Numbered from the stretch's first letter, positions 6,774 to 62,473 are shown. The stretch is DNA of 64,000 bases from an uncultured Cytophagales bacterium (GCA_945957555.1 CAMFLX010000001.1:28759-92758), one strand, 5' to 3'. Numbers and translations: made by a program. The notes: generated by a model not told the origin, from the sequence alone.

Positions 6774-6887
6774 AACGCCTTGCTATCTTGAAAAAACAAA
6801 TCGACAAACCCTATTAAGATTTCCTTGTCTCAACAATACTTAATGAACTTATAGAAGAAATAGCGCTTTCAAAATTATCAAATCTCT

Positions 6888-6895
6888 TATCTTTG
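6888..6895 (+). promoter_or_regulatory. candidate -7 box TATCTTTG
   Basis: Matches TAnnTTTG, 19 nt upstream of the ATG at 6915. Confidence 0.3.
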
Positions 6896-6914
6896 CAATT
6901 TAGAACGAAGGTAT

Positions 6915-39296: not shown

Positions 39297-39330
39297 CAAA
39301 AAACTAGATTCTCTTGAGTCTAGTTTTTTT
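39297..39330. terminator. bidirectional intrinsic terminator
   Basis: AAAAAACTAGA...TCTAGTTTTTTT with an inner CTC/GAG extension. The T-run overlaps the stop codon of the minus-strand kinase. Confidence 0.7.
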
Positions 39331-41434: not shown

Positions 41435-41473
41435 TTAGCTTTCCTTTTTCCTTATTATGTAAAATAAATTGAT

Positions 41474-43570
41474 TTATTTATTGGGAAGATGTATGTAGAA
41501 CGTTGTTCCTTCACCCAATTTACTAGTCACTTCTATTTTCCCATCTAGTAGCTCTACTTGAGATTTCACGATAAACAGTCCCATGCCTTTCCCCTCCTGC
41601 TTGTAATCTATTTTATAAAACAACTTAAATACATCTTCAAGTTGTGATTCGGCTATTCCTTGCCCATTATCTTTAACTTTTATAATTGTCGTTAGATCTC
41701 CATCAAAACTCTCTACAATTATTTCAATTGGTCTATCCGAAGATCTATATTTAATAGCATTACTTACTAAATTGTAAATTATGCTTGTGATGTACGCAGA
41801 AAAACTTTTTATTTTGCTTACTTGGAAATTAGTTTTAATAGTGCAATTTGTCTTTTCAATTTGGATGACCAATTTGTCTTTTATGTTATCAATTACAGCA
41901 TTTAAATCTATTTCTGTATATTCAATATCCGTACCCTTATCAAGTTTTACTAGTATATTTATTTCCTCAATGATGTTTATAAGTTGGTTACTTGTCCTTC
42001 CTATTACAGAAAAGTACTCCTTATTTTCTTCGCTTAAATTATCAAAATTAACAAAGCCCAATAGAGCATCTAAATTATTAACTGGTGATTTAAGATTATG
42101 AGAAACAATATAGGTAAACTGCTCCAGCCTATCTGTCTTACGTTCTAGTTGCTTATTAGTTTCCAAGATTTCTTTAGTCCTGGCCTCAATTTGTTGCTCT
42201 AAGTTCTCAGTATAATCCCTCAAGAGATCGTTTTGTTGCTTAATAGTTTGTGAGAATAATTCCAGTTGATCATTTTTCTCCAAAATTTCCTTAGTTCTGC
42301 TACTGATCTTTCTTTCCAAAATATTATTTTGTTCAACAATCAAACGTTCCTTTTCAGCAACGGCAGCTAGTTCACTTTCTTGGGATTTCTCTTTATCCAT
42401 TCTTAATTTCCGAAGTTTGTCAGCTAAGGCCAGAGAAATGAGTACTGCGTCAATAATGACACCCAATTCAATAAGTGTTTCTTGAAATTTATTACCTGTA
42501 ATAATACCCATTACCCGAAAGCTCATCATCAATACACTTACAAGAAAAAAGCTTGACGCCAATGTATAAAATCTGGCAGTATAATTTCCACTAATCCAAG
42601 AGCTTAAGCTAATGTAAAGAAGAGCACATGGTGTAACAATGTAAAGAATAGAAGCTATCCTAATGGTGGTTTGATACTCAACAAAAAAGGATAAGATAGT
42701 AAAGATAATGCCTGTAAATATTATAAACTTCAATATGTAACCATAATACTTATTTGTTTTTTTTATTTCTAAGAAATAATAACAAAACAAGCTACTGATA
42801 ATAACAAAATTAAAGACTATGTTTCCAAAAAGCTTGTTCAGTAGAATGCGATCATGATTGAAAACCCCGGAATAAGAAATAAATCCGTTAAAATAACTCA
42901 AAATGGCAATAATGACAAATACGTAAGTACAGTACAAAAGATAAACAAAATCTCTTAATGTGATGAATAACAATAAATTATATGTCAATATTAAGATCGT
43001 AGCACCATAGAAAAGTCCATAAAAAAGATAGTTCTTTTTTTCAGTATCGTACATTGATTCTTCACTCGAAATGCTCATTGGCAAGTAAACGACGCCTTCC
43101 GTCTTTACTTTAATATAAATAGTTTGGATATCATTATAAGATATCTGGAGTGGTAAAACAATATTTTTTGTATCGTAATATTTATTGTAAGTTGGGTACA
43201 TCTCACCTTGTTGCTTTATTTGTACCATGCCATTGGCGGAAAGTTGGTAAACAATAATAGAATCTATAAGGGGAAAGCCAAAATTGAGAACCCATTTTTC
43301 AAGTTCAGAATTATTGTTTTTAATTCTTAATTTTAGCCAAACAGCCTTATCAAAAATTCCTAAATTTAATATATTAGTTTTCGCAGTAAATCTTTCATCA
43401 GACAATTTATCAATAGTAGTAATGGTATAAGTATTCGAACTATCTATAAAATATTTGAAAGCTGGATTTTCTACAATATGCTTACTATCATACAATTGTA
43501 TGACCCCAACTTGTGCAAAAATCGATTTACACACTAGGATGAAAACATTTATAAAAATGATTTTTTTCAA
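41474..43570 (-). CDS. 7TM-DISM sensor histidine kinase, tandem paralog of the preceding gene
   Basis: Same architecture and a near-identical H-box region (EQFTYIVSHNLKSPVNNLDALLGFVN...). TTG start. Confidence 0.85.
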   Translation of the reverse strand: MKKIIFINVFILVCKSIFAQVGVIQLYDSKHIVENPAFKYFIDSSNTYTITTIDKLSDERFTAKTNILNLGIFDKAVWLKLRIKNNNSELEKWVLNFGFPLIDSIIVYQLSANGMVQIKQQGEMYPTYNKYYDTKNIVLPLQISYNDIQTIYIKVKTEGVVYLPMSISSEESMYDTEKKNYLFYGLFYGATILILTYNLLLFITLRDFVYLLYCTYVFVIIAILSYFNGFISYSGVFNHDRILLNKLFGNIVFNFVIISSLFCYYFLEIKKTNKYYGYILKFIIFTGIIFTILSFFVEYQTTIRIASILYIVTPCALLYISLSSWISGNYTARFYTLASSFFLVSVLMMSFRVMGIITGNKFQETLIELGVIIDAVLISLALADKLRKLRMDKEKSQESELAAVAEKERLIVEQNNILERKISSRTKEILEKNDQLELFSQTIKQQNDLLRDYTENLEQQIEARTKEILETNKQLERKTDRLEQFTYIVSHNLKSPVNNLDALLGFVNFDNLSEENKEYFSVIGRTSNQLINIIEEINILVKLDKGTDIEYTEIDLNAVIDNIKDKLVIQIEKTNCTIKTNFQVSKIKSFSAYITSIIYNLVSNAIKYRSSDRPIEIIVESFDGDLTTIIKVKDNGQGIAESQLEDVFKLFYKIDYKQEGKGMGLFIVKSQVELLDGKIEVTSKLGEGTTFYIHLPNK

Positions 43571-46741: not shown

Positions 46742-47629
46742 ATGGAACGTAAACACTTCTTGAAACTCATGTCTCTTACGCCATTTTTCGGTATCGCACA
46801 AAAAATGCACGTTTTAAACGAACTTTCTAACCATCTCCCCAATACAGAAACGATGCCTGTTCTCTTTGTTGGCCACGGAAGCCCGATGAATGCGATAGAA
46901 GACAATATTTTTTCCCAAGGAATGAAAGAAATAGGGAAAAAAATCAATAAACCAAAAGCTATTCTGATGGTTTCGGCTCATTGGGAAACAAAGGGTACAT
47001 TTGTAACAGCTCAAAGCTTGCCACCAACCATTCATGATTTTGGAGGCTTCCCTCAAGCACTATTTGACGTACAGTATCCTGCTCCTGGTAGCAAATGGCT
47101 AGCAGAAGAAACACAAAAGACAGTGACAAGTACAAATATTGAACTCAATGACAAATGGGGCTTCGATCATGGTTGCTGGAGCGTTACAAAAAATATGTTT
47201 CCAAATGCAGACATCCCCATCATTCAGCTGAGTTTGGATTATACACAAACAGCACAATACCATTATGACTTAGCAAAACAGCTTGCATCCTTACGTAAAA
47301 AAGGAGTTCTCATCATCGGAAGTGGTAATATGGTTCATAATTTTAAGTATGCTATGGTAAAGGGGAACGATTTCAACGCACCTTTTGCACATGATTGGGC
47401 CATAGAAGCCAATACTACTCTTAAAAAACTGATATTAGACAATGACTACAAATCCTTAATCAATTATAAAACATACAGCAAAGCCCTCGATCTTTCTGCT
47501 CCAACACCAGAGCATTATTTACCAATGCTTTATGCCATAGCCTTGAGGGACAGAGAGGAATCAATAGATTTCTTTAACGATGTTACAGTAGGCGGCTCCT
47601 TTTCCATGACATCAATAAAAATTGGCTAA
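46742..47629 (+). CDS. ygiD: 4,5-DOPA dioxygenase extradiol (YgiD family)
   Basis: PVLFVGHGSPMNAIEDN, VSAHWET, DHGCWSV and GSGNMVHN motifs. Confidence 0.85.
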   Translation: MERKHFLKLMSLTPFFGIAQKMHVLNELSNHLPNTETMPVLFVGHGSPMNAIEDNIFSQGMKEIGKKINKPKAILMVSAHWETKGTFVTAQSLPPTIHDFGGFPQALFDVQYPAPGSKWLAEETQKTVTSTNIELNDKWGFDHGCWSVTKNMFPNADIPIIQLSLDYTQTAQYHYDLAKQLASLRKKGVLIIGSGNMVHNFKYAMVKGNDFNAPFAHDWAIEANTTLKKLILDNDYKSLINYKTYSKALDLSAPTPEHYLPMLYAIALRDREESIDFFNDVTVGGSFSMTSIKIG

Positions 47630-47740: not shown

Positions 47741-48469
47741 ATGCAAAAGCTTTTATTTTTGTCAATTTATATTCTGATAATCAATGTTTTCGCTGAAAAT
47801 CATACTTTTTACACAATCGCAAAATCAGGCCTCAACCTCAGGTCAGAAGCAAACACTTCTTCAAAAGTATTGGCAACAATAGCCTATGGTGAAGAAGTGA
47901 TTCTCGTTACTAATTATGTAGCCGACATAAAAGTCGACAATATGTCTGGCTATTGGGTAAAAGTAAAATATAAGAACCTAGTGGGTTTTTTGGTAAACGT
48001 ATATTTGGTTCCTAACAAGGCTCCTCTCGGAACCATAAATTCGCTCTCTGACTACTTTTCGCAAATCAGCACTATGGCCTACAAAACAGAAGAAATCAAA
48101 AACGGTAATTTCACAGATGATAGCGAAGGCTATAGCTCAATACAAAAAACGCTATATAAAAATGGTATGGAAATTCATTACTTTACAGGTTATGAATTTG
48201 GTGAGCAAACCTTTTTCTTACCCAATTGGAGCAAAGAAAACACTTTTCTATTACTCAAATCCATTACTGACTTTAAAATATTGAACGATTTTTCTATCAT
48301 GTACCCGACGGTTAGTAAAGTATATAAGAAAGGTGAAAAAACTGTGGATGTTAAAGTTGATGCAAATAGTGGCGTTATCCATATTTCTTATGAAGAAGGT
48401 GCGATGTATGAGATCACGATCACTTACCAAAGCAATCAAGCTGTTGTTACTCTTTCTTCAGGTGTTTAG
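47741..48469 (+). CDS. secreted SH3 (SH3_3-like) domain protein
   Basis: Signal peptide, then LNLRSEANTSSKVLATIAYGEEVILV...GYWVKVKYKNLVGFL, typical of bacterial SH3 domains. Confidence 0.55.
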   Translation: MQKLLFLSIYILIINVFAENHTFYTIAKSGLNLRSEANTSSKVLATIAYGEEVILVTNYVADIKVDNMSGYWVKVKYKNLVGFLVNVYLVPNKAPLGTINSLSDYFSQISTMAYKTEEIKNGNFTDDSEGYSSIQKTLYKNGMEIHYFTGYEFGEQTFFLPNWSKENTFLLLKSITDFKILNDFSIMYPTVSKVYKKGEKTVDVKVDANSGVIHISYEEGAMYEITITYQSNQAVVTLSSGV

Positions 48470-48613: not shown

Positions 48614-51600
48614 ATGCACAAAGACGAAGATATATTAATTGATAAAATAAAGGATTTTAGAAGAAAATTCTTTCTAAAATCGGTTTACAAAGGTATTGTT
48701 CTGTTTGTTATTCTTCTTGTTTCAGCTTTTATTGCTATCAATGTACTAGAATATTACGGCAATTTCAATAGTATCATAAGAAGTGTCTTATTTTTTTCCT
48801 TTTTGAGTATAGCACTTTGGGGCGGTATAAAGTATATTGCAATACCCAGCTATAAATTTATCAACAAAGAGAAAGAACTTGACAATCTAAAAACAGCAGA
48901 GCTCATCGGACAAGGGTTTCCTTCTGTAAAGGATAAACTGGTAAACTATCTACAGCTACTCCAAAATTCAGAAAACAATACTCTGGCTCAAGAAGCATTA
49001 AAACAAAAAAAGGGGGAACTTAAATCCGTTCCCTTTTTGCAAATCATAAGATTTGAAGAAATTAATAAGTATCTAAAATACAGTGTAATACCGATTATTA
49101 TACTCTTGGGAATATTCATGATAAGCCCTGCCATATTTAGTGAAGGTTCTAATAGGATCATCAACTATAATAAAACTTTTGTTCTTGATGCACCATTTAA
49201 GTTTACAATCAAAAACAAAAACTTAAAAACTTTTCAGAATGAAGATTTTATATTAAACGTTGGACTTTCAGGACAAGCCCTACCAGAAAATATTTATGTA
49301 GAATACAACGGGCGAAAGATCAAGCTTGAGAATGTAAATGGCAATTTCTCTCATATTTTCAAAAACATCCAAAATGACATCATTTTCAATTTAGAAGCAT
49401 CAGGATACTCTAGCAATAACTACAAGTTAGAAGTTATTCAAAAACCAACGCTCAATGGCTTTAACATAACACTCGATTATCCGTCATACATCGGTAAAAA
49501 ATCTGAAACGCTCGAAAACAGTGGAAACATGACAGTACCAGAAGGTACCCTGATAACTTGGGATATAAATGCAAGACAAACAGATACCGTAATTTTTACT
49601 TTTGGTGATCGTGAAATAAAAAAAATAGACAAGTCTCTGATTAACAGTCATTTCAAAACAAGTAAAAAAATTCTTAACAATATTCCCTATAATGTTACCC
49701 TATTAAAATCTGGTGTTGATAAAAGAAGTGAAACCAATTTTAATATTGAAGTTATAAAAGATCAATACCCTAGTATTCTATCAGAGTCCGTCTCAGATAC
49801 CGTACTATATAAAGAAATAAATATAGGGGGAAGTATTAAAGATGATTATGGTTTTAGTAGATTAACGCTGATCTACAGCATACAAGATGAGAGTGGTAAG
49901 CACATTAGTCAAAAATTAATACCAATACCAATAAACCCAAAAAATTATTCACAGAACTTCTATTATAGCTGGAACATAGACACACTTAAAATCAAGCCAG
50001 GAGAACGTATTACTTACTATTTACAAGTATGGGACAACGATGGAGTAAATGGCGCAAAATCTGCAAAAACCAATGTATATGAGCTCAAATTACCAAATCA
50101 GAAAACGATAGAAGAACAAATTCAAAATTCTGCTGAAAAGACGGAAGGCCAATTAGACAATTCTATGTCTAAAGCCATGGAATTACAAAAAGATTTTGAA
50201 AAGCTACAGAACAAAATAAAGGGCAAGAAAAACCTAGACTGGCAAGACAAAAAAGCAATTGAAGACTACATCAAAAAACATGATGCTCTCAAACAGGATA
50301 TTGAAAAACTAAGTGAGCTCAACAAAAACCTCAACGAAAAACAGGAGAAATTCACCGAGGAAGATCTAAGAATCGCAGAAAAAGCAGAAAAACTACAAGA
50401 CCTCATACAAAACATAATGGATGAAGAAACAAAAAAACTATGGGAGGATCTTCAAAAACTTATGGAAGAGAAAAACAAGGATTCTGAGATTCAAGATCTA
50501 TTAAACAAAATCGACCAAAAAGATGAATCTATGGAAAAAGAATTGGATAGGGCCATGGAATTCTATAAACAACTACAATTTGATAGAAAACTAGAAGAAA
50601 ACATTGAAAAGCTTCAGGAACTAGCTGATAAACAAAAAGAACTTTCTGATAAATCCAACGAAAAAAATACAGATACTAAAGAGCTAGAAAAACAACAGGA
50701 GGAACTCAACAAGAGTTTTGAAGAAATAAAGAAAGAGATGAAAGAGATGAAAGACATCAACAGTTCTCTTGAAAACAAACACGACCTCAAGGATCTTGAT
50801 CAAATGGAGAAAGATGCTGAGCAAAAAATGCAGGAAGCCAAGGAAGAGCTCAATCAAGGAGACAAAAAGGATGCAAACAAAAAGCAGAAGGAAGCCTCTA
50901 ACAAAATGCAAGACATGGCAAACCAAATGCAAAAAATGAAGCAAAGCGAAGAGCAAAAGCAAAATGAGGAAAACATGGATGACTTGAGGCAAATCCTTGA
51001 AAACCTCATCAAACTCTCTTTTGACCAAGAAGAATTAATGAAAAACCTAAAAAAGGTCAACAAATCTGATCCAAAATACCTACAATACAGCCAAGAACAA
51101 CTAAAACTACGTGATGATGCCAAGGTAATAGAGGATAGCCTCTTCGCTCTTTCCAAAAGAGTACAAGAAATAGAAAGCTTTATCAACAAAGAAGTAGGAA
51201 ACATGAAAAACGACATGGATGAAAGCTCGAAATTGATCAAAAAGCGAGAACCCATGTTTGCAAGTGCCAAACAACAAGCAGCTATGACCTCTATGAACAA
51301 CCTAGCGCTCATGCTAGACGACGTTCTCAGAAGTATGCAAGAGAAAGACCAACAACAGAACCAAGACTCCAAGAGTGGCTCGGGAAGTTGCAAGAAACCG
51401 GGATCTGGCAAAGGACAAGGCAAAAAGAAAGGGAATAAACCTTCACCAGGCCAAATGCAAGAGCAACTAAACCAACAAATGCAACAACTCATCAATGGAG
51501 GCAAAAGTGGCTCAAAAATGTCTGAACAATTGGCCAAAATGGCAGCCCAACAAGAACGGATTAGAAAAGCTCTCCGAGAGATGGAAAACATGAGAAAAAT

Positions 51601-52012
51601 GGGGGAGAAGGGAAAAGGAAATTCCGAGAAACCCGGCGAGAATGGCAAAGAAGGAAATCAAGGTAAAAACGGACAATCAGGGAGTGGGGGAGATGCCGAT
51701 AAAATGCTAAAGGAAATGGAAAAGATCGAGGAAGAAATTGTAAACAAAAGGATCAATCCAGAACTTATCAAAAGACAAAAGGAGCTAACCACAAGGCTCC
51801 TTGAATTTGAAAAATCATTACGTGAACGAGAAATGGAAGAAAGAAGAGAATCGAAAACAGGAAAAGACATGGAAAGAACGATTCCTCCTTCACTCTTGAA
51901 ATATTTTTCAGAAAAAAACAAGGTTACAGAGATGATTAGGACGGTTCCTCCAAATCTTAACCCATATTACAAGAAAAAAGTAAATGATTTCATACAAAAT
52001 CTAAACCCTTGA
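48614..52012 (+). CDS. giant membrane-anchored protein with a long K/E/Q-rich coiled-coil region (DUF4175-like)
   Basis: 1132 aa with two N-terminal TM segments and a beta-rich middle. It then has about 550 aa of charged low-complexity coiled coil including G/K/S-rich patches. Confidence 0.6.
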   Translation: MHKDEDILIDKIKDFRRKFFLKSVYKGIVLFVILLVSAFIAINVLEYYGNFNSIIRSVLFFSFLSIALWGGIKYIAIPSYKFINKEKELDNLKTAELIGQGFPSVKDKLVNYLQLLQNSENNTLAQEALKQKKGELKSVPFLQIIRFEEINKYLKYSVIPIIILLGIFMISPAIFSEGSNRIINYNKTFVLDAPFKFTIKNKNLKTFQNEDFILNVGLSGQALPENIYVEYNGRKIKLENVNGNFSHIFKNIQNDIIFNLEASGYSSNNYKLEVIQKPTLNGFNITLDYPSYIGKKSETLENSGNMTVPEGTLITWDINARQTDTVIFTFGDREIKKIDKSLINSHFKTSKKILNNIPYNVTLLKSGVDKRSETNFNIEVIKDQYPSILSESVSDTVLYKEINIGGSIKDDYGFSRLTLIYSIQDESGKHISQKLIPIPINPKNYSQNFYYSWNIDTLKIKPGERITYYLQVWDNDGVNGAKSAKTNVYELKLPNQKTIEEQIQNSAEKTEGQLDNSMSKAMELQKDFEKLQNKIKGKKNLDWQDKKAIEDYIKKHDALKQDIEKLSELNKNLNEKQEKFTEEDLRIAEKAEKLQDLIQNIMDEETKKLWEDLQKLMEEKNKDSEIQDLLNKIDQKDESMEKELDRAMEFYKQLQFDRKLEENIEKLQELADKQKELSDKSNEKNTDTKELEKQQEELNKSFEEIKKEMKEMKDINSSLENKHDLKDLDQMEKDAEQKMQEAKEELNQGDKKDANKKQKEASNKMQDMANQMQKMKQSEEQKQNEENMDDLRQILENLIKLSFDQEELMKNLKKVNKSDPKYLQYSQEQLKLRDDAKVIEDSLFALSKRVQEIESFINKEVGNMKNDMDESSKLIKKREPMFASAKQQAAMTSMNNLALMLDDVLRSMQEKDQQQNQDSKSGSGSCKKPGSGKGQGKKKGNKPSPGQMQEQLNQQMQQLINGGKSGSKMSEQLAKMAAQQERIRKALREMENMRKMGEKGKGNSEKPGENGKEGNQGKNGQSGSGGDADKMLKEMEKIEEEIVNKRINPELIKRQKELTTRLLEFEKSLREREMEERRESKTGKDMERTIPPSLLKYFSEKNKVTEMIRTVPPNLNPYYKKKVNDFIQNLNP

Positions 52013-52074
52013 TAATTATTTACGTATAGTATAATTTTGTATAGAATTTAGAATAACGCGTGTTCCGATTATAT

Positions 52075-52473
52075 ATGGATAGTATAAGATTACAGATACC
52101 CTCATTACCAGAAAATGTTAGGATAGTGGAGAGTTTCATTGATAACGCCAAAGAAAAATTTCACATTGATGACGATGTGTATGGTAATATAATGGTTGCC
52201 GTAACCGAATCAGTAAACAATGCTATTATTCATGGCAATAAATGTGATAAGAGTAAAAATGTAAATATCAGCTTAGAAATGGGCGATCATGCATTAAAAT
52301 TTGTCATAGAAGACGAGGGCAAAGGCTTTGACTACCAAAACTTACCTGATCCTACAGCTCCAGAAAATCTGCTAAACACTGGTGGTAGGGGCATTTTCTT
52401 AATGCAGAACCTATGCGATAAAGTAGAGTTCTTCAACGAGGGCAAAAAAGTAGAACTAAGTTTTGCTGTATAA
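52075..52473 (+). CDS. RsbW-like anti-sigma regulatory factor / GHKL ATPase (HATPase_c_2)
   Basis: ATG at 52075 (MDSIRLQIPS...). It has VTESVNNAIIHGN (N-box), DEGKGFD and GGRGIFLM. Confidence 0.7.
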   Translation: MDSIRLQIPSLPENVRIVESFIDNAKEKFHIDDDVYGNIMVAVTESVNNAIIHGNKCDKSKNVNISLEMGDHALKFVIEDEGKGFDYQNLPDPTAPENLLNTGGRGIFLMQNLCDKVEFFNEGKKVELSFAV

Positions 52474-52901
52474 TGGCTAAGATCAACTTTATCGCTGAAG
52501 ACGTAGATATACGGTTTTTCAAAAATAAAGAGAAGATCAGAAATTGGATTAAAGAAGTACTAGCATCCCATAAGGCAAAGCCTATTGAGATCAACTACAT
52601 CTTTTGCTCGGATGAATATATTCTCAAAATAAACAAAGAATATTTAGACCACGATTACTATACAGACATTATCACTTTTGACAACTCCGAAAAAGCTGGA
52701 GAAATCGAAAGTGATATTTTTGTTTCTATAGATCGAATAAAAGATAATGCCCTAGCTCATCAAGAAACTTTTGATAGAGAATTTCATAGAGTACTCATAC
52801 ATGGCATACTCCATCTTGTTGGATATAAGGACAAAACAGATGATGATGAAGCCAAGATGAGAGAGAAAGAAAACAAATGTTTAGCTATTATTGATCTATA
52901 A
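52473..52901 (+). CDS. ybeY: rRNA maturation endoribonuclease YbeY
   Basis: HRVLIHGILHLVGYKD zinc-binding H-x-x-x-H-x-x-x-x-x-H motif; 142 aa; TAATG overlap with the upstream gene. Confidence 0.92.
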   Translation: MAKINFIAEDVDIRFFKNKEKIRNWIKEVLASHKAKPIEINYIFCSDEYILKINKEYLDHDYYTDIITFDNSEKAGEIESDIFVSIDRIKDNALAHQETFDREFHRVLIHGILHLVGYKDKTDDDEAKMREKENKCLAIIDL

Positions 52902-52940
52902 TATAAGAGGTGTTCCACGAGGAACACCTCTTATATTATA
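52897..52940. terminator. 44-nt perfect hairpin (20-bp stem, ACGA loop) overlapping the ybeY stop codon
   Basis: TATAATATAAGAGGTGTTCC (52897-52916) pairs with GGAACACCTCTTATATTATA (52921-52940), read directly. The core is TGTTCC-ACGA-GGAACA. Confidence 0.75.
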
Positions 52941-52947
52941 ACACTTA

Positions 52948-53112
52948 TCAAACGAAACACCTTACCGAAAATAATATACCTAAATGATATATGCCTGAAA
53001 AAGAGTAGCTAATCATATTGACCAGCCAAAAAATAGCTTTCAAATAACAACGTATATGGTATTGTACGTATATAAATCGCTCAATCATAAAAGCGGAAAC
53101 AGAAATTAGCAT
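52948..53112 (-). CDS. possible 54-aa hydrophobic small protein (below the ORF-track cutoff)
   Basis: My translation is MLISVSAFMIERFIYVQYHIRCYLKAIFWLVNMISYSFSGIYHLGILFSVRCFV. The stop lies 7 nt from the bidirectional hairpin. There is no homology evidence, and the minus strand is T-rich, which can create such ORFs by chance. Confidence 0.2.
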   Translation of the reverse strand: MLISVSAFMIERFIYVQYHIRCYLKAIFWLVNMISYSFSGIYHLGILFSVRCFV

Positions 53113-54253
53113 AAAACAATTAGATTCTGTAAGATAGGTTCCATTATTATCCCAAGAATTGACTGTGGTAGTGGATCAATGTACCATTCTTGATTTATAA
53201 TAGCGAATTGGTCATTGGTATATCCTCAATCAAGAAACAACCCTGAAAAGGTTGAATATGAATAAGCTGTCCCGAACTTCTGAGAGGCTCATGAGCATTG
53301 AGGGGTTGGAAGTCGAAGGTCATTCAACGACACAGAAACGGATTGAATTATACGTGATAATATACATAAAGCTGGGTTTCTACGGCACCTATAATTGGAT
53401 AACTGCCAGGTTTTTGCCTTCACGCTTCCTCGAGCTTCGTACGCGGCTATTCATACTCAATTTCTCCAGCGTTGTTCTTGGTCTGCCTCAAATAATCGTA
53501 TAATCATTGATTATGGAACGCATGATTACCCTGTATCAAAAATAAGTCCCAAAAGTCTTGGAATTAAAGGAAACATAACGATATCGGCTGACGATCTATA
53601 AGGGTGTATACAAAAAGCTTTTTGGTGTCTTACTTTTATTCTAAAACTTATCTAAGCAATTCTTAAAATAAATATAGTTTAATATAGTCGATTCCTATCT
53701 AATTAGAGTTTCTGGTTATTAACCAAAAGGTTTTTCTAACTAAAATATTTGTGATTCTTAGAAATAATATCAAAAAATAATGTGATATCTTTCCAAGAAA
53801 AGAATTCTATAGAACTTCAAAGGAAATAATCCCAACGACTTATATGATCCATACATGTAAATATGAATGTATCCACCATATAAATTCACTTACATCTTAC
53901 TAGAAACAACTGATAAACAAACTAAAGAATTAGTTTTTAGATTTGAAAGAGTTCTATATTAAATAGTTTTAGAAATCGAAAATCAGAAATAATGGATCAT
54001 TGAATTAATTCGATTTCACTTTGATTATGAAATCATATTCCATAAACTGACAAAAGATATGATAATTCGTTAACAAGCAATACAACCTAGTAACTGACGA
54101 AATGGACATCTCTTGCCTTACGATAAAATCAAAACGAGGATACTTTAGTCATTTAGAAAACTCTAATGTTTTCAACCATAGAAAATACCAAATCAAGGCA
54201 GATCTCAATACTATCCGAACCAACTAATACAAAAGAAACTAAAAGCATTCAAT

Positions 54254-54273
54254 ATGTTCCCCGTGGAACACTT
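54254..54273. repeat. copy 1 of the 20-bp repeat ATGTTCCCCGTGGAACACTT (TGTTCC-CCGT-GGAACA hairpin)
   Basis: Read directly. It is identical to 54912-54931 and related to the core of the ybeY hairpin. Confidence 0.85.
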
Positions 54274-54911
54274 TAAAGTTTAAATACAAATTATACAAAA
54301 ACCAAAAGGTAAAATTCAATTATTAAAACAGGTATATGAATCAAGAAGGCAGATAAAACAAACTAAGTAGGCAATAAAAATAAACTACATTGTACCTACG
54401 TTATAAAAGGATCCCGAAGAACTAGACACAAACTTCTGACTTCATACAAAAAATACTATGTAAACAAAAATTAAGCTTGCTTCATTATATTTATCGCTCA
54501 GAAAATGATAAAACTTCAATTCTAGTAAAGCCCTTCATATATACATAAAGAAAGAAGAAGAAAGGCTTATGTAGATGCAGTAATCTGTCTGACATCAAAC
54601 AATATTTACCATTTCTTAACAGTTGGAAAAAGACCAAAAAGTAATTCATCTAAACTACTCTACTCAAAAGTACAATGGGTAAATCCTACAAAAACCCATT
54701 AAACCATAACTTTAACTAAAAACACATTCTTAAAATACTAACAAGAAAATCCATGTCAATGATCATATAAAAAACAATAAGAAGCACATATCAATTTTAT
54801 TTTACACTGGTTATATCTGCCAATCGTTTGCTTCTCACTAACTTTGCAGATTAAACAATTTTGAGTAAAATTCTCAATTCAGTTAATTATAAAGAATAAA
54901 AGTTTAACAAA

Positions 54912-54931
54912 ATGTTCCCCGTGGAACACTT
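54912..54931. repeat. copy 2 of the 20-bp repeat ATGTTCCCCGTGGAACACTT, 15 nt upstream of the mnmG ATG
   Basis: Read directly. It also opens a 9-codon ORF, MFPVEHLYT-stop (54912-54941), ending 4 nt before the mnmG start. Confidence 0.85.
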
Positions 54932-54945
54932 ATATACATAAACAA

Positions 54946-56811
54946 ATGTTTAAAGAGTACGACGTAATAGTAGTAGGGGCAGGACATGCTGGAAATGAAG
55001 CAGCAGCAGCAGCAGCAAACATGGGTTGTTCTGTTCTTCTTATCACAATGGACATGACAAAGATTGGTCAAATGTCCTGTAATCCGGCAATGGGTGGTGT
55101 CGCAAAAGGGCAAATAGTTAGAGAGATCGATGCTCTTGGTGGTTTATCAGGAATAGTTACCGACAATACAACTATACAGTTTAGAATGCTAAATAGATCA
55201 AAAGGCCCTGCCATGTGGAGCCCAAGGGCACAATGTGATAGATGGAAATTTGGAGAAGAATGGAGAATCCAATTAGAAGCCATTCCAAACCTAGATTTTT
55301 GGCAAGAAATGGTAAGTGGTCTTATCGTAAAAGACGGACATATAAAAGGTGTAAAAACAGCATTAGGCATAGAAATATTAGCAAAGTCTGTAGTACTTAC
55401 CAATGGTACTTTCTTAAATGGTCTTATACATATTGGTGAAAAAAACTTTAGTGGAGGTAGAACTGGCGAGAAGGCTGCTACGGGAATCACAGAACAATTA
55501 CTTCAATTGGGTTTTGAAAGTGGAAGAATGAAAACAGGCACACCAGCTAGAATAGATGGAAGAAGTATAAATTATGCATTAACAGAAGAACAAAAGGGAG
55601 ATGAAAATCCTGAGAAGTTTTCCTATTCGGATGCTACCAAAGCACCAGAAAAACAGATGAGCTGTTGGATCACTTATACTAATGATGAAGTTCATGAAAT
55701 ATTAAAAACAGGATTCGAAAAATCCCCTATGTTTCAAGGAAGGATAAAAGGACTAGGACCAAGATATTGCCCTTCCATAGAAGATAAAATAAATAGATTC
55801 TCTGAAAGGGAAAGACATCAGCTGTTTATAGAACCTGATGGATGGAATACTTGTGAAATTTATCTAAATGGCTTTTCTTCTTCACTTCCAGAAGAAGTAC
55901 AATTAAAAGCGCTTAGAAAGATAAAAGGTTTGGAGAATGTAAAGATATTCAGACCCGGTTACGCTATAGAATACGACTATTTCCCACCAACACAATTAAC
56001 GCTTACCCTTGAAACAAAACTGGTTAAAAACCTCTTTTTTGCCGGACAGATTAATGGTACGACTGGTTACGAAGAAGCTGCTGCCCAAGGACTGATGGCT
56101 GGAATAAATGCTGCCCTAAATGTAAAAGGGGAGGAGTCTCTCATACTTAAGCGCGACGAAGCATACATAGGTGTATTAATAGATGACCTAATAAACAAAG
56201 GGACTGAAGAACCTTATAGGATGTTCACTTCTAGGGCAGAGTACAGAATCTTACTAAGACAAGATAATGCAGATATTAGACTTACAGAAAAAGGCTACAA
56301 AGTTGGACTGGCTACAGAAAAGGCTCTTGATAAAGTAAAGGAGAAACTTAATGAAACAAAAAGAATAACAACTTGGTTAAACACTACCAAAATAGATCTC
56401 TCTACCATCAACCCTTGGCTTGTACAAAAAGAAAGTGCAGAATTACGAGAGAAAACATCTTTGATGAATTTACTAAAAAGACCAAATATAAGTATAACTG
56501 ATTTTTATGAAATCAACCAAGATGTAAAAGAATACCTCGATACACAAAAAAGAGAGCATTTAGAACAAGCAGAAATCATAGCTAAATATGATAACTATAT
56601 TGAAAAAGAAAGATTAATGGCTGATAAACTGAGATCTCTAGAAGATCTAAAATTGCCTAGCACGATAGATTACAATAACTTCACAGCACTGTCTAATGAA
56701 GCCAAAGACAAACTTAAAAAAATAAGACCTTTAACTTTGGGCCAGGCTTCAAGAATATCTGGTATATCGCCTTCAGATATATCAATAATCATGATTCAAA
56801 TCACAAAATAA
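54946..56811 (+). CDS. mnmG: tRNA uridine 5-carboxymethylaminomethyl modification enzyme MnmG (GidA)
   Basis: YDVIVVGAGHAGNEAA, GQMSCNPAMGG, RYCPSIEDK, FFAGQINGTTGYEEAAAQG and a C-terminal PLTLGQASRISGISPSDIS. Confidence 0.95.
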   Translation: MFKEYDVIVVGAGHAGNEAAAAAANMGCSVLLITMDMTKIGQMSCNPAMGGVAKGQIVREIDALGGLSGIVTDNTTIQFRMLNRSKGPAMWSPRAQCDRWKFGEEWRIQLEAIPNLDFWQEMVSGLIVKDGHIKGVKTALGIEILAKSVVLTNGTFLNGLIHIGEKNFSGGRTGEKAATGITEQLLQLGFESGRMKTGTPARIDGRSINYALTEEQKGDENPEKFSYSDATKAPEKQMSCWITYTNDEVHEILKTGFEKSPMFQGRIKGLGPRYCPSIEDKINRFSERERHQLFIEPDGWNTCEIYLNGFSSSLPEEVQLKALRKIKGLENVKIFRPGYAIEYDYFPPTQLTLTLETKLVKNLFFAGQINGTTGYEEAAAQGLMAGINAALNVKGEESLILKRDEAYIGVLIDDLINKGTEEPYRMFTSRAEYRILLRQDNADIRLTEKGYKVGLATEKALDKVKEKLNETKRITTWLNTTKIDLSTINPWLVQKESAELREKTSLMNLLKRPNISITDFYEINQDVKEYLDTQKREHLEQAEIIAKYDNYIEKERLMADKLRSLEDLKLPSTIDYNNFTALSNEAKDKLKKIRPLTLGQASRISGISPSDISIIMIQITK

Positions 56812-56886
56812 AAGTTGGTTCTTGATTAATAAAGTTTAATTTTTAAAATTAAGAGGATCTTAATAATTCTCTCTCTTGTATATACA

Positions 56887-58410
56887 ATGAAAAAAATAGC
56901 GTTAGTGATAAGTGTTAGTGGTACATTATTGTTGTTAAAATCTTGTGCCAATATTGGCAGCCCTAGTGGAGGAACAAAAGATACAACAGCACCTTATGTA
57001 AAAACTATAGTTCCAGAAAACAAAACTACAAACTTTACAGGAACCAGTATTTCTGTAGATTACTCTGAATTCGTTGACTTAAGTACCGTGGATAAAGAAT
57101 TAGCTATAGTTCCTCATGTTGAGAAATATGAAATTGAAAAGGGAACCAAAAGTCTAAAGATCAAATTCAAATCGAAACTTGAAAAAAACACCACCTATCA
57201 AGTATTTTTTGGTAAGGGTGTAAAAGATGTAAACGAAGCAAATGTATGCAAGCTAAAATCTTTAGTGTTCTCTACTGGACCATACCTAGACTCCTTGAGT
57301 ATTACAGGTACTACAACTTATCTACCTACAAACAAACCTACAAACTGCTTTATAGGTTTGTATAAATCCAGTGATACTTTAAATATTAGTAAGCATCTAC
57401 CTTATTATTGGTTAACTTCTGAAAACGGCAAATTTTCCTTTGAGAATATCAAAGAAGATAATTATGAAGTATATGCCTTCATTGATAACAACAAAAATAA
57501 ATTACTAGACAAAAAAGAAGCTATAGCATTCCTTACAAGTAAAGTTAACCCAAAACTTATGAAAACTGTGGAGCTAAAGCTAAGCCAGCAAAATCTTGAC
57601 ACATTAAAACTTATATCTACTACGGATACTAAAGACTTTTATCAAATAAAGTATTCTAAAGGTATAAATAAGTGTGAAGTATCTGATAGTCAAATATTTA
57701 AAATTGAAAATGAAAAGATATTAATTTTTAAGGGTACAGAAGACTCTCTTACGTCTACCATACTAGTCGAAGATACCTTAGGTACAGAGATTAAAACAAA
57801 ACTACACATAGACAACAAAGCAAAGCCCTCAAAAAACAAAACATTTATTAAATCCATTAATGCTACCGCAATACCCACTGAAAAATATGTCTTTCTCACC
57901 GAAAGAAAACTTTCAAAAATAGATCACGACTCCATAAACATTTCTTACGATACCAAGAAGCTTGGTAAGGAAGATCTCAAGATCGTAAAAGATTCTATTT
58001 ATTTTATTATACCTCAATACAAAGACTCATTAAAGATACAGTTTAAAAAAGGCTCATTCATCTCACTATTCAATGATACCCTAAGTGGTATTAATACTAT
58101 TCACAAAAACTTCGATGAGACCAATTATGGTCTCATTTCAGGAAAGATAGAGTTTGATGGCAACATCGTACTACAGCTCTTGAAAAACAATAGGGTAGAG
58201 TACAGTACGAGAAATAAGGTATTTGAAGCCAAATATATGGAAGCTGGTGAGTATACCATTAAAGTAATCAAGGATACTGATAATAATGGTTATTGGACCC
58301 AAGGTGATCATAGAATTAAAAAACAAGCAGAAGACATATTTTTTAACCCAAAAACCATTCTTTTGAAGGCAAATTGGGAGCTAAAAGACCTGTTGATAAA
58401 AGTTGAATAA
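56887..58410 (+). CDS. lipoprotein with an N-terminal SbsA/Big_5-like Ig domain
   Basis: Lipobox LLLKSC, then GSPSGGTKDTTAPYVKTIVPENKTTNF, typical of Ig-like (Big_5) domain proteins; 507 aa. Confidence 0.55.
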   Translation: MKKIALVISVSGTLLLLKSCANIGSPSGGTKDTTAPYVKTIVPENKTTNFTGTSISVDYSEFVDLSTVDKELAIVPHVEKYEIEKGTKSLKIKFKSKLEKNTTYQVFFGKGVKDVNEANVCKLKSLVFSTGPYLDSLSITGTTTYLPTNKPTNCFIGLYKSSDTLNISKHLPYYWLTSENGKFSFENIKEDNYEVYAFIDNNKNKLLDKKEAIAFLTSKVNPKLMKTVELKLSQQNLDTLKLISTTDTKDFYQIKYSKGINKCEVSDSQIFKIENEKILIFKGTEDSLTSTILVEDTLGTEIKTKLHIDNKAKPSKNKTFIKSINATAIPTEKYVFLTERKLSKIDHDSINISYDTKKLGKEDLKIVKDSIYFIIPQYKDSLKIQFKKGSFISLFNDTLSGINTIHKNFDETNYGLISGKIEFDGNIVLQLLKNNRVEYSTRNKVFEAKYMEAGEYTIKVIKDTDNNGYWTQGDHRIKKQAEDIFFNPKTILLKANWELKDLLIKVE

Positions 58411-58724
58411 CTTGTGGATAAGTGTGGACAACAATAGGAACAAGTTCTACACACTTTGATTATTGTAGATAGTTGTGTTTAACTATTACTTATCCTCAAT
58501 TATACACACATAAAGTTATCCCCAATTTAATATCCCCCATAAAGGGTGATACAAAACATAATTAATTGAATAACAAATAAATATATTGTTGATAACTATG
58601 TGGAAATAGTAAAAAGTTTATTTGAGTAATCAACATTCCACTTTTCAAAATTAATTTATCAACAAATCCACAGCCTTAATAATAATAGTAATTATATTTA
58701 TATCATTTATCATTATTATATTAT
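58391..58724. other. candidate chromosomal replication origin (DnaA-box cluster + AT-rich unwinding region)
   Basis: There is one perfect TGTGGATAA (58413-58421). Six 9-mers have one mismatch to TTATCCACA/TGTGGATAA (58391, 58423, 58490, 58516, 58587, 58656) and two have two mismatches (58599, 58664). A roughly 90 percent AT tract follows at 58676-58724. The region sits one gene from mnmG/gidA. Confidence 0.6.
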
Positions 58725-60548
58725 ATGTGTAAAACTCATTCGAAAGGACCTCTAATTTTAACATTCATCATTGTTTTGTTTGGAAACCTATTTTCCCAAA
58801 TAATAGGTGAATTGCAGCTTGCAAACGAATACTATAAATCTGGAGAATATAAAAAAGCAAAAATACTTTACGAAGAACTTCTGAAGGATAAGTCTAAAGT
58901 AGATTTTATCTATGATAACTATTTGGCAACTCTTGAAAAGCTTAACGAATACATTGCGGCGGAAAAGTTTATCAAGAAGAATGTGAAGAAGTTTGAGGAT
59001 AACCCAAAATACAAGATAGATCATTACTTGATATTCAAAAAGCAAAATAAAACCGAAGAAGCTAACAAGCTTAAAGAAAAGTACGCGGAACAGATCTCCA
59101 CAAATAGGAATCAAATATTTGATGCTTATGCAATACTTGCGGATAGGGGAGAGCATAATTTCATAATTTCATTACTGAGCAATGCTAGGAAAAACATGAG
59201 AGAGCCCACATTGTTTGCAGAGCAGTTGGCTAGTTCGTATAAGGCTCTTGGAAATAGGGAGATGATGATCACAGAAATGATCAACATGGTCAAGTATGAA
59301 AGTAATGATCAGGAGCTTTTAAAAAACAAGCTTCAACCACTTCTTGACAACGAACAAGATCTTGATATTTTGCAGAAATTGCTTATTGAAACTATTCAGA
59401 AAAATCCGGAGGACGATAATGCCACCCTATTGTTGGTTTGGGTACTTATTCAGAGAAGAGAATTTAATATGGCCCTTGTTCAAGCTAAAGCTTATGATAG
59501 AAGAAAAAAGGTAGGTGGAGAGCAGATCTATCAATTGGCGAAGATAGCTTTTGAAAATAAAGACTATGAGACCGTCATAGAAGCTTCTGGTTATGTTAAA
59601 ACTGTTTACCCTAGTACTGATACGTATTTTGCAATTTCGATGCTGTCACTGCGTTCTAAAGAAGAGATAATAAAACAGAGATACCCTGTAGATAGGTCTA
59701 AAGTTTCTGAATTAGTAATGGACTACGCGGACGTTTGTAAAAAAAACGCGGCTACGCCGTATTGTGCTGAAGCTTTAAGGAAAGAAGCCCTACTGCTCGC
59801 CTTTTACCTTAACAAGCAAGATACAGCCATTAAAATGCTTGAGAGCATTATTAAAACGTATGCCTATGATAGAAATATTGTTGACAGGGCAAAACTCGAT
59901 CTAGGCGATTTGTATATTCTTAAAGATGATCATTGGGAGAGCGTTTTACTCTATACCCAAGTAGAAAAAACACAAAAGGAAAATTTGTTGGGTCATGAAG
60001 CAAAATTTAAAAATGCTAAGGTGCATTACTATACAGGAAATTTCGACTTGGCGGAAGAGCAGTTAGATGTACTAAAACTAGCTACCTCACGCGAGATTGC
60101 AAACGATGCTTTGTACTTAAGTCTGATCATTCACATGAATAAGGCCGAAGATAGTTTGCAAAATGCACTCAATATTTTTGCCAAAGCAGATCTCGAAAAG
60201 TTTTCACAAAATCTGGAAGCTGCAGAAGTAAGCTATAAAAAATTGATCGATGAATATCCTAGAGATGCTTTGGTAGATGATGCACTATGGAATCTTGCTG
60301 AGATTTCAATCAAGAAACAACTATACAGCCAGGCCATTTTGCTGTTGGATCAAATATTGGAAAAGTATCATGATGATATTTTTGCAGACGATGCGTTGTT
60401 TACTAAAGCAGAACTCTATGAAATAAAACTTAAGGATTCTTTAAAAGCGATGGAGTTTTATCAAAAGCTCATGACAGATTATCCATCAAGTATTTACACT
60501 AGTGAGGCAAGAAAGAGATTTAGGAAACTTCGAGGAGATAAATTATGA
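58725..60548 (+). CDS. TPR-repeat protein
   Basis: 607 aa with an N-terminal hydrophobic segment and multiple TPR-like units (e.g. ANEYYKSGEYKKAKILYEELL, ALWNLAEISIKKQLYSQAILLLDQILEKY, ALFTKAELYE...AMEFYQKLMTDYPSS). Confidence 0.7.
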   Translation: MCKTHSKGPLILTFIIVLFGNLFSQIIGELQLANEYYKSGEYKKAKILYEELLKDKSKVDFIYDNYLATLEKLNEYIAAEKFIKKNVKKFEDNPKYKIDHYLIFKKQNKTEEANKLKEKYAEQISTNRNQIFDAYAILADRGEHNFIISLLSNARKNMREPTLFAEQLASSYKALGNREMMITEMINMVKYESNDQELLKNKLQPLLDNEQDLDILQKLLIETIQKNPEDDNATLLLVWVLIQRREFNMALVQAKAYDRRKKVGGEQIYQLAKIAFENKDYETVIEASGYVKTVYPSTDTYFAISMLSLRSKEEIIKQRYPVDRSKVSELVMDYADVCKKNAATPYCAEALRKEALLLAFYLNKQDTAIKMLESIIKTYAYDRNIVDRAKLDLGDLYILKDDHWESVLLYTQVEKTQKENLLGHEAKFKNAKVHYYTGNFDLAEEQLDVLKLATSREIANDALYLSLIIHMNKAEDSLQNALNIFAKADLEKFSQNLEAAEVSYKKLIDEYPRDALVDDALWNLAEISIKKQLYSQAILLLDQILEKYHDDIFADDALFTKAELYEIKLKDSLKAMEFYQKLMTDYPSSIYTSEARKRFRKLRGDKL

Positions 60549-60556
60549 TGAGTTGC

Positions 60557-62473
60557 TCAAAGTTTTTTTAAACTTTTGTCACAGTTTTCACAATAGTTCT
60601 TTTTGAGGTAATCATCTTCCAAAAGTTGGAATGATATACCGCCTTCACTATAGGCGGCATCATACATTTTGCAGAACCGCTCTGGGTTCACATTATGTGC
60701 GTTTAGCAATATGGTTCTGTACGCAGGTTTGGAAGTATATTTATTGTCGCTAATGGTTAAGTTTATAAAATAGAACAAAAGATCTTCTGTGATGTTGATT
60801 TTACTTACTCTGTATTCTATCATCTTAATCGCCCAATCTTGTTTGTTGTAAGCAGTAAAATATTTTGCAAGCCTTATCAAGTCTTCGTCGCTGTAAGGAG
60901 TGTTTTTGTAGTTTGAAAAAATATACTGTAGTGCCTTATCCTTTTCTGCATATTTTTTTTCCACCAGCAAGTATTCACACATAATGAGATGATAGTTTAC
61001 CATCATTCTTCTCACAATTCTCGGATCATATTTCAACTTTTCGAGCTCCTTAATCAATACCAACATTTTGTTTCTGTCAATAATCAGTTCGTTTTGTGAA
61101 AACAAGCTTAGATAAGTAACAGCAATGTTGTACTTGATATTTAAGTTTTTGGGATCGAGCTCTTGAAGTCTTTGAAAAGCAGTAAGTGCTGAAATCTCGT
61201 TACTAATCTGTTGATTTGATTTAAAAACAACCCTATTGCTAAGTATTGACAATAAAGAAGCAACTTCTGGAACTTCTAAATCCTCTAAGATCTTGGAATT
61301 GTACTTTTGAGTTTCTACGTTTTGGAAGATGACCTGCTGAAGCTCAAGTGCTAGAGCAATATTCTTTTGTTCGATGGCCTCATTGAACTTGAGGATCATC
61401 TGTTTTTCGGTTATGTCTAGATAGGTGTTCTTCTTTTCCATTTCAAGAAATAATACCGCTTTTCTGTGATTTTTAAGAATGGGTTCTATTTCTTCCTTCG
61501 AAGATTTTTTTTCGAGTTCTATTTTAATCTCTTCTTTACTAAGATTTTTGAGGTATGCGTATTTCGTATTTCCAATATCGTTTAAAAACTCTACCCAGTT
61601 TTCTGATGCTGAAACGTCTCTTTTGATCTTGATATTTTGGAAGGACTCTAGGGCACTTGTAATACTTTCAGCCCTTTTTTGCTGTAATTCTATATTTTTT
61701 TCTAATAACCCCTCTACAGATGAGTAAGCTCTGATTTTAAGAGAAGTAATGTTGTAGTAATTAAGCAATAAAGAGTCTCTGAGGGGAAATAAATCTTCTG
61801 CTTTATACTCATACTTGTTTTTCTCAAAAGGAATGGTAAATTCCATTTTTTTGTGAAAAGTAAGTTGTCTTTCATTTCTCATAGCTGGATCTTCATTAAA
61901 GGCAAGTGTATCCATGTAAAGATCAAGCTTCAAAAGCTCTAGTTTATGCTCAGGCAAATCATAAAATCTCATGTACCTGCACATTTCCTTTTTTTTAATA
62001 AGGATTAGGTTAAACTCTAAATCTTTGGAATCAGCGAGATCTTCAGGAAGTTCACAAAGAGGCACCAATATATCGTAACTATTTTTATCACCGACGTTTG
62101 ATTTTTTGATATCTTTCAGATATACCGGTCGGGTCATAATACCCTTTATAAAAGAGTTACTTCTGATTTCTTCTTTATCGCAATCGTACTGTGATTTTCT
62201 CAGGATATCAAGAGCTAAGGCGTCATTTTTATGGTCAATAAGCAAATGAAACCAATCAGCGTCAGTCATCCCAAAAAAAACAAAAGAACCAGATTTGAAT
62301 ACTCCATAGCGAACGTCTGCAGGCATACTCAATAATTTAGACTCACATTCTACGCAGCTTTTGGAAGGATGCAAAGGATTGTATTTAATTCCAAAAGTGT
62401 TTCTGTCTTTTTTTGATTGTCCTAAACTGGAAAAATGGAATATAGCAAATATTAGAAAAATGTACTTTTTCAT
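60557..62473 (-). CDS. secreted hypothetical protein (short OmpA-like segment, helical repeat C-terminal half)
   Basis: Signal peptide MKKYIFLIFAIFHFSSLGQ. The segment RAYSSVEGLLEKNIELQQKRAESITSAL resembles the OmpA-family core. I did not recognise the rest. Confidence 0.35.
   Translation of the reverse strand: MKKYIFLIFAIFHFSSLGQSKKDRNTFGIKYNPLHPSKSCVECESKLLSMPADVRYGVFKSGSFVFFGMTDADWFHLLIDHKNDALALDILRKSQYDCDKEEIRSNSFIKGIMTRPVYLKDIKKSNVGDKNSYDILVPLCELPEDLADSKDLEFNLILIKKKEMCRYMRFYDLPEHKLELLKLDLYMDTLAFNEDPAMRNERQLTFHKKMEFTIPFEKNKYEYKAEDLFPLRDSLLLNYYNITSLKIRAYSSVEGLLEKNIELQQKRAESITSALESFQNIKIKRDVSASENWVEFLNDIGNTKYAYLKNLSKEEIKIELEKKSSKEEIEPILKNHRKAVLFLEMEKKNTYLDITEKQMILKFNEAIEQKNIALALELQQVIFQNVETQKYNSKILEDLEVPEVASLLSILSNRVVFKSNQQISNEISALTAFQRLQELDPKNLNIKYNIAVTYLSLFSQNELIIDRNKMLVLIKELEKLKYDPRIVRRMMVNYHLIMCEYLLVEKKYAEKDKALQYIFSNYKNTPYSDEDLIRLAKYFTAYNKQDWAIKMIEYRVSKINITEDLLFYFINLTISDNKYTSKPAYRTILLNAHNVNPERFCKMYDAAYSEGGISFQLLEDDYLKKNYCENCDKSLKKL

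Follow-up and report, generated by a model that had tools for sequence, protein, structure and literature searches.

The origin of replication of Escherichia coli, oriC, lies between mnmG (gidA) and mioC, distal to dnaA; its cluster of DnaA boxes stands beside an AT-rich DNA unwinding element (DUE), and the DUE-proximal box faces that element. A comparable arrangement occurs in a 64,000-nucleotide stretch of metagenomic DNA (the window; GCA_945957555.1 CAMFLX010000001.1:28759-92758). A 314-bp gene-free gap at 58411-58724, one gene downstream of mnmG, separates a gene for a Big_5 Ig-like domain protein from a gene for a TPR protein. With one box that reaches back to 58391, this gap is very probably (about 0.88) the DnaA-dependent oriC of an uncultured member of the Bacteroidota, most closely related to Cytophagales. 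A preliminary description of the window had proposed an origin here, and its interpretation now draws support from box density and from four independent lines: an unwinding module, a switch in GC skew at third codon positions (GC3 skew), conservation in relatives, and parS context. The anatomy of the sequence, its conservation, the change of strand-composition polarity at the site, and the parS context are direct observations.

The window resembles E. coli in the mnmG neighborhood, in the DnaA-box cluster beside an AT-rich DUE, and in the DUE-proximal box directed at the DUE. Unlike in E. coli, mnmG is one gene away and transcribed towards the putative origin, and no 13-mer repeats are evident in the gap. 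The E. coli origin is itself regarded as a rearranged basal unwinding system (BUS) (PMC8287927). The BUS was defined in Bacillus subtilis incC, where it comprises DnaA boxes 6/7, a GC cluster, DnaA-trios, and an AT-rich region, and about 85% of bacterial origins are predicted to contain one (PMC8287927; PMC6669920). The published rules allow at most 2 mismatches in the box and at most 4 in a tandem second box of the same orientation. The spacer between the better box and the first trio may not exceed 16 nt, its lengths peak at 10-13, and it usually contains a short G/C cluster; at least 3 consecutive NAN trios follow, the first of them close to 3'-GAT-5' (PMC8287927).

An oriC distant from dnaA is common in Bacteroidetes, Prevotella intermedia being a case in point (PMC4755523). 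In two Flavobacteriaceae, Mariniflexile litorale (PMC11278836) and Algorimicrobium bowmanii (PMC12843772), the oriC predicted by Ori-Finder adjoins mnmG and is consistent with GC skew. The window is like these Bacteroidota predictions in having its putative origin in the mnmG neighborhood and away from dnaA. The nearest origin with experimental support is that of another member of the Cytophagales, Cytophaga hutchinsonii. According to PMC3531139, replicative plasmids built on this oriC have confirmed it (Xu et al. 2012), and it agrees with the DoriC prediction; what it shares with the window locus is its place in the Cytophagales.

DnaA boxes and a putative unwinding module

Direct reading of 58380-58760 and a search of both strands with the E. 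coli DnaA box consensus, TTATCCACA, revealed 14 boxes in about 340 bp. Of these, 8 have at most 1 mismatch, including one that is perfect, and the other 6 have 2 mismatches. All nine boxes named in the preliminary description were recovered at the positions it gave, and several others were added. The consensus scan and the module discussed below yield the following features.

58391 and 58587, minus strand: DnaA box TGTTGATAA, 1 mismatch
58413, minus strand: perfect DnaA box TGTGGATAA
58423, minus strand: DnaA box TGTGGACAA, 1 mismatch
58490, plus strand: DnaA box TTATCCTCA, 1 mismatch
58500, plus strand: DnaA box TTATACACA, 1 mismatch, absent from the preliminary description
58516, plus strand: DnaA box TTATCCCCA, 1 mismatch
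58656, plus strand: DnaA box TTATCAACA, 1 mismatch
58599 (minus strand) and 58664 (plus strand): boxes with 2 mismatches, present in the preliminary description
58445, 58464, 58474, 58627, and 58726: boxes with 2 mismatches, newly added
58391..58431, minus strand: left trio of TTATCCACA-like boxes (58391, 58413, 58423)
58490..58524, plus strand: trio of boxes with 1 mismatch each (58490, 58500, 58516)
58587..58635, both strands: middle boxes at 58587 (minus, 1 mismatch), 58599 (minus, 2 mismatches), and 58627 (plus, 2 mismatches)
58656..58672, plus strand: composite tandem DnaA box TTATCAACA+AATCCACA, 17 nt, directed at the AT tract
58673..58675, plus strand: GCC, a G/C spacer that separates the tandem boxes from the trios
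58676..58690, minus strand: DnaA-trio-like triplets (top strand TTA ATA ATA ATA GTA; bottom strand 3'-AAT TAT TAT TAT CAT-5')
58676..58724, both strands: AT-rich putative DNA unwinding element, 49 bp, 93.9% A+T
58726..58734, minus strand: weak inward-facing box TGTGTAAAA with 2 mismatches, located beyond the AT tract and overlapping the TPR start codon

The leftmost box (58391) is contained in the 3' end of the Big_5 open reading frame (ORF), whose stop codon is at 58408-58410. The density of the cluster is evident from the boxes with at most 1 mismatch: 8 fall within 282 bp where 0.115 are expected, as opposed to 0.41 per kb in the rest of the window. The Poisson probability of such a cluster is 7e-13, or 1.6e-10 when multiplied by the number of windows of this kind. 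By the same count no other cluster in the 64 kb comes close to it in density, and any other stretch of about 350 bp holds at most 3 such boxes. Could these 9-mers have piled up by chance in an AT-rich promoter spacer that has no DnaA function? With about 33-37% G+C, the genome is rich in A+T, and single-mismatch box-like 9-mers are frequent, at 34 in the 64 kb. However, a cluster probability of about 1e-10, the recurrence of the module at the syntenic place in 15 divergent loci, and the coincidence with the skew switch effectively refute this explanation. Rfam and tRNA scans gave no match in or near the gap. A sigma-70 promoter and terminator scan returned 4 matches against 4.1 expected, with a model unsuited to Bacteroidota promoters.

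The boxes at the TPR end form part of a candidate BUS. Scored as boxes, the tandem pair consists of TTATCAACA (1 mismatch) and AAATCCACA (2 mismatches) in the same orientation, within the BUS box rule. Between the first box and the first trio are 11 nt (AATCCACAGCC), of which the last three are GCC; this length lies in the peak of the spacer rule. The bottom strand then reads 3'-AAT TAT TAT TAT CAT TAA TAT AAA TAT-5', a run of 9 NAN triplets beginning with AAT that exceeds the minimum of the trio rule. The module is in agreement with all four published BUS rules. The choice of strand follows from the source itself: supplementary file 3 of PMC8287927 writes the strand 3' to 5', with the box as AATAGGTGT, so the strand that carries the trios is the complement of 5'-TTATCCACA-3'.

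The likeness to the B. subtilis-type BUS extends to a tandem pair directed at the unwinding region, an upstream box closer to the consensus, an 11-nt spacer, three or more NAN triplets, and a following AT tract. There are two differences. Only the first trio here (3'-AAT-5') fits 3'-[G/A]AT-5', the rest being TAT, TAT, TAT, and CAT. Furthermore, BUS boxes are 2-3 nt apart, whereas the two boxes of the window abut and share one base; unwinding at this pair is predicted. Because NAN runs easily arise by chance in AT-rich DNA, the weight of the trio evidence rests on conservation.

The AT tract is unusual within the window. The 50-mer that starts at 58677 is the least stable duplex, ranking first among 63,951 window 50-mers by nearest-neighbor free energy, and its predicted -43.0 kcal/mol compares with a window mean of -60.8 (sd 4.2) in this sequence-level test. 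The preliminary description had put the tract at about 90% AT over 58676-58724, a figure that the 93.9% A+T bears out.

Among described modules, that of Salinibacter ruber (PMC8287927) is nearly the same, with the top strand reading TTATCCACATTTCCACA CGA CTAATAATA, that is, a 9+8-nt tandem box, a 3-nt spacer, and CTAATAATA. The BUS entries for Leadbetterella byssophila and Marivirga tractuosa (PMC8287927 supplementary file 3) have the same layout as the window. On the other hand, the BUS that DoriC lists for C. hutchinsonii, Runella, Dyadobacter, and Spirosoma looks unlike the window module; these entries may mark a different box of the same gap or another locus.

Conservation among relatives

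Comparison of 80 MnmG loci with 10-kb flanks provides a second line of evidence. Among 185,579 species genomes, MnmG identity reaches 68% at best, and most of the top matches are Cytophagales; together with a T9SS sorting domain found by Pfam in the window, these relatives place the organism in the Bacteroidota. Loci of the Cytophagales type, including those of Lunatimonas, Emticicia, Runella, Roseivirga, Aquirufa, Fibrivirga, Larkinella, and several metagenome-assembled genomes (MAGs), carry a cluster of 4-12 boxes (2 in locus L027) about 2.4 kb downstream of mnmG. No TTATCCACA-type cluster was found within 10 kb of mnmG in the Flavobacteriales loci. By tblastn, the order DUF4175-HATPase-ybeY-mnmG-Big_5-[cluster]-TPR recurs, whole or mostly, in the Cytophagales-type loci, and all 15 of these carry the unwinding module as well.

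The intergenic DNA of these loci, judged by eye rather than by alignment, is dissimilar except at the TPR-proximal end. Here a common layout is retained: TTATCCACA abutting [A/T]ATCCACA, 2-5 spacer nucleotides that are usually G/C-rich, YTAATA..., and an AT-rich tract. Of the 15 Cytophagales-type loci, 14 have a 17-mer with at most 3 mismatches to TTATCCACAWATCCACA in the syntenic position; that of the remaining one, L041 (4 mismatches), was placed by eye. The same 17-nt type of tandem box occurs in 3 Chitinophagaceae loci. The first trio of the relatives is GAT or AAT, with YTAATA after the spacer in 14 of the 19 loci. Likewise in 14 of the 19, TAAT[A/G] begins 3-4 nt past the tandem boxes, where the background is 0.029. 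An inward-facing box (2 mismatches or fewer) is present at a distance of 55-83 nt from the start of the module in 12 of 16 syntenic loci, where about 0.065 per locus would be expected. Because the loci are kin, binomial figures for these two features overstate their significance, but to the eye the rest of the spacer has changed past recognition. In Cytophagales-type origins the predicted unwinding element is clamped between the tandem pair and the inward-facing box.

The three Chitinophagaceae loci (L055 at 5912, L062 at 4514, and L066 at 6145) display the same module, with the tandem box, GCC, and CTAATA(A/G)TA, and 4-7 boxes nearby. In these loci the module precedes mnmG by 4-5.5 kb, and the origin of that family thus appears to be on the other side of the gene. 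L062 (Chitinophaga sp. Hz27) also has, at 6795-7726, 15 boxes with one mismatch on one strand, spaced about 62 bp apart in a tandem repeat of period 62/123. This array falls within an ORF-free 2.4-kb gap between the BUS-like module and ybeY/mnmG, and a shorter array of 5 boxes is present in L055 at 8165-8398. Such arrays could be datA-like DnaA-titrating arrays or an extended origin.

Two other loci, L003 and L006, come from MAGs labeled 'uncultured Limnohabitans sp.', a betaproteobacterial genus. Both have the gene order of Cytophagales, an MnmG 67% identical to that of the window, and the oriC module described here, and L006 has the TTATCAACAAATCCACAGCCTTAATAA of the window exactly. The Limnohabitans label is probably wrong.

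Strand composition and gene orientation

The third line of evidence is a change in strand composition at the gap, a test that the preliminary description had named for the whole chromosome and that can be made here within the window and among relatives. On the plus strand, GC3 skew is negative in 41 of the 47 ORFs to the left of 58411, whichever strand is coding, and positive in all four ORFs to the right of 58724 (Fisher P = 0.0008 for the contrast in sign). Within the 64-kb window, the cumulative GC3-skew minimum is located exactly between the ORF ending at 58410 and the ORF starting at 58725. The pooled loci agree: right-flank skew exceeds left-flank skew in 14 of 16 (Wilcoxon P = 0.0017). 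A replication terminus was considered and rejected, as the plus strand passes from C-rich on the left to G-rich on the right, which is the polarity of an origin.

Several observations weigh against an origin at this site. Right-flank skew is weak in the pooled loci, and 2 of the 16 have the opposite sign. The right side of the window is 5.3 kb long and holds 4 ORFs, so the skew switch within the window rests on few genes. Plain GC skew, cumulated in 2-kb steps, declines from position 1 to about 50 kb and climbs thereafter, with its minimum at about 48-50 kb. Finally, 30 of the 47 left ORFs are on the plus strand, head-on to forks that would leave the origin; the preliminary description had remarked that the orientation is not what a leading-strand bias predicts, correctly as these counts indicate.

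The plain-skew minimum can be reconciled with an origin in the gap by separating the contributions of replication and transcription. Whole-flank GC skew in the 16 loci is about zero on the left and positive on the right, and it is uninformative until split by codon position and gene strand. In the whole-sequence regression the gene-strand term (t = 0.067) is larger than the origin-side term (r = 0.040). At third positions in the 16 syntenic loci, the replication term is r = 0.082 and the transcription term is t = -0.010. The offset of about 9 kb is not counted against the origin, because the coding-strand term dominates whole-sequence skew; third-position skew removes this term, and the minimum moves into the gap.

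Gene orientation is also a shared trait. DUF4175-HATPase-ybeY-mnmG-Big_5 runs toward the putative origin in the Cytophagales-type loci as well, some of which are without individual genes. Gene-strand bias is generally weak in bacteria lacking PolC. The head-on orientation, conserved as it is in relatives, does not outweigh the skew evidence.

A separate explanation of the skew switch would be a recent inversion breakpoint or a chimeric join in a metagenome contig, with the box cluster there by coincidence. The source is a metagenome assembly and the right side spans just 5.3 kb, features that would suit such an artefact. However, a second, independently assembled metagenome contig, L001, crosses the junction and is identical to the window over 54425-59154, so the Big_5/TPR junction is not an assembly artefact. 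Moreover, the Big_5/TPR order is kept in the cultured relatives Emticicia, Runella, Roseivirga, and Larkinella. An inversion or a chimeric join is therefore highly improbable.

Genomic context, proposed firing, and meaning

The genes and the parS-like sites around the gap are listed here, with gene assignments by Pfam.

48614-52012, plus strand: DUF4175
52060-52473, plus strand: HATPase_c_2
52473-52901, plus strand: YbeY
52911-52926, 54255-54270, and 54913-54928: three parS-like sites, each 1 mismatch from TGTTCCACGTGGAACA
54946-56811, plus strand: mnmG (gidA), the classical origin neighbor (PF01134 GIDA, E = 2e-165)
56887-58410, plus strand: Big_5 Ig-like domain protein, 507 aa, left flank of the gap
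58725-60548, plus strand: TPR protein, 607 aa, with a signal-peptide-like N-terminus, right flank of the gap, its start codon abutting the putative unwinding element
after 60548, minus strand: three genes

The Pfam match to GIDA confirms the statement of the preliminary description that mnmG is one gene from the cluster. No dnaA, dnaN, or parAB was found in a Pfam scan of 51 of the 53 window ORFs of at least 120 aa (those at 46742-47629 and 47741-48469 were unscanned). Between ybeY and mnmG, a stretch of about 2 kb (52902-54945) is without an ORF of at least 120 aa, is A-rich on the plus strand, and has parS-like sites at its bounds. Just right of the gap, a 638-aa minus-strand ORF (60557-62473) is without a Pfam match. 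Farther to the left, on the minus strand at 39329-43570, are two tandem paralogous 7TMR-DISM sensor histidine kinases of 701 and 698 aa.

A scan of the window for parS with up to 3 mismatches gave 4 matches against 0.45 expected, and 3 of the 4 are those at 52911-54928. These three lie 4-6 kb to the left of the gap. The first is within a palindrome with a 15-bp stem directly after ybeY, and one is 33 bp upstream of mnmG. In each window copy the mismatch is central, as in CCCCGTGG. In most of the 80 Bacteroidota loci, parS (TGTTCCACGTGGAACA) is found 30-80 bp upstream of mnmG, and Flavobacteriales loci have a second parS just downstream of mnmG. As putative origin-proximal centromere markers, the parS sites beside mnmG support the assignment of oriC to the gap.

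The parS motif also bears on a published entry. For Flavobacterium johnsoniae (NC_009441), supplementary file 3 of PMC8287927 gives the 'species-specific DnaA box' 3'-ACAAGGTGC-5' (5'-TGTTCCACG), which is a parS half-site. Box plus spacer in this entry, ACAAAGTGCACCTTGT, is the complement of the full parS, TGTTTCACGTGGAACA. The published BUS or origin call was therefore probably anchored on parS and not on a DnaA box.

An alternative is that the gap binds DnaA and is not an active origin, either as a relic or secondary cluster that regulates its neighbors or as a datA-like titration site. A precedent (PMC13438810) is offered by oriCII of Pseudomonas aeruginosa, upstream of gidA, where DnaA is described as a transcription factor at a box cluster. 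Moreover, the TPR start codon abuts the AT tract, so the TPR promoter must lie within the box cluster. A purely regulatory role, however, would not cause a strand-composition switch exactly at the gap. A complete and conserved unwinding module, with tandem boxes, GC spacer, trios, and the least stable duplex, and the nearby parS sites also argue against it. A regulatory or titrating site is thus unlikely.

For the gap as an origin, DnaA binding, unwinding, and firing are inferred from the features above, and the following steps are modeled on the B. subtilis-type BUS. ATP-DnaA would occupy about 14 boxes over 280 bp, and DnaA on the terminal tandem pair at 58656-58672 would seed a DnaA filament. 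The filament may then cross the GCC spacer onto the bottom-strand trios at 58676-58690 and melt the adjoining 49-bp, 94% A+T tract at 58676-58724. The replicative helicase would load on the melted DNA, and two forks would depart in opposite directions.

The putative unwinding element overlaps the promoter and start codon of the conserved secreted TPR gene, and ybeY-mnmG-Big_5 enters head-on from the other side. A further proposal is that origin firing is mechanistically coupled to transcription of the flanking envelope-protein genes, such that the Big_5/oriC/TPR arrangement was selected and not just inherited. Transcription into or out of the DUE might help to open or silence the origin, and DnaA might set TPR expression. 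Such coupling is very doubtful at present.

The understanding of bacterial origins is unchanged by this locus, as the type of element, the distance from dnaA, and the mnmG neighborhood have already been described. What is added is comparative support, in that the BUS module and the Big_5/oriC/TPR arrangement are conserved across Cytophagales. For an uncultured lineage, a probable oriC would be useful for orienting MAG contigs, for peak-to-trough estimates of growth rate, and for oriC-based shuttle vectors such as those for Cytophaga hutchinsonii.

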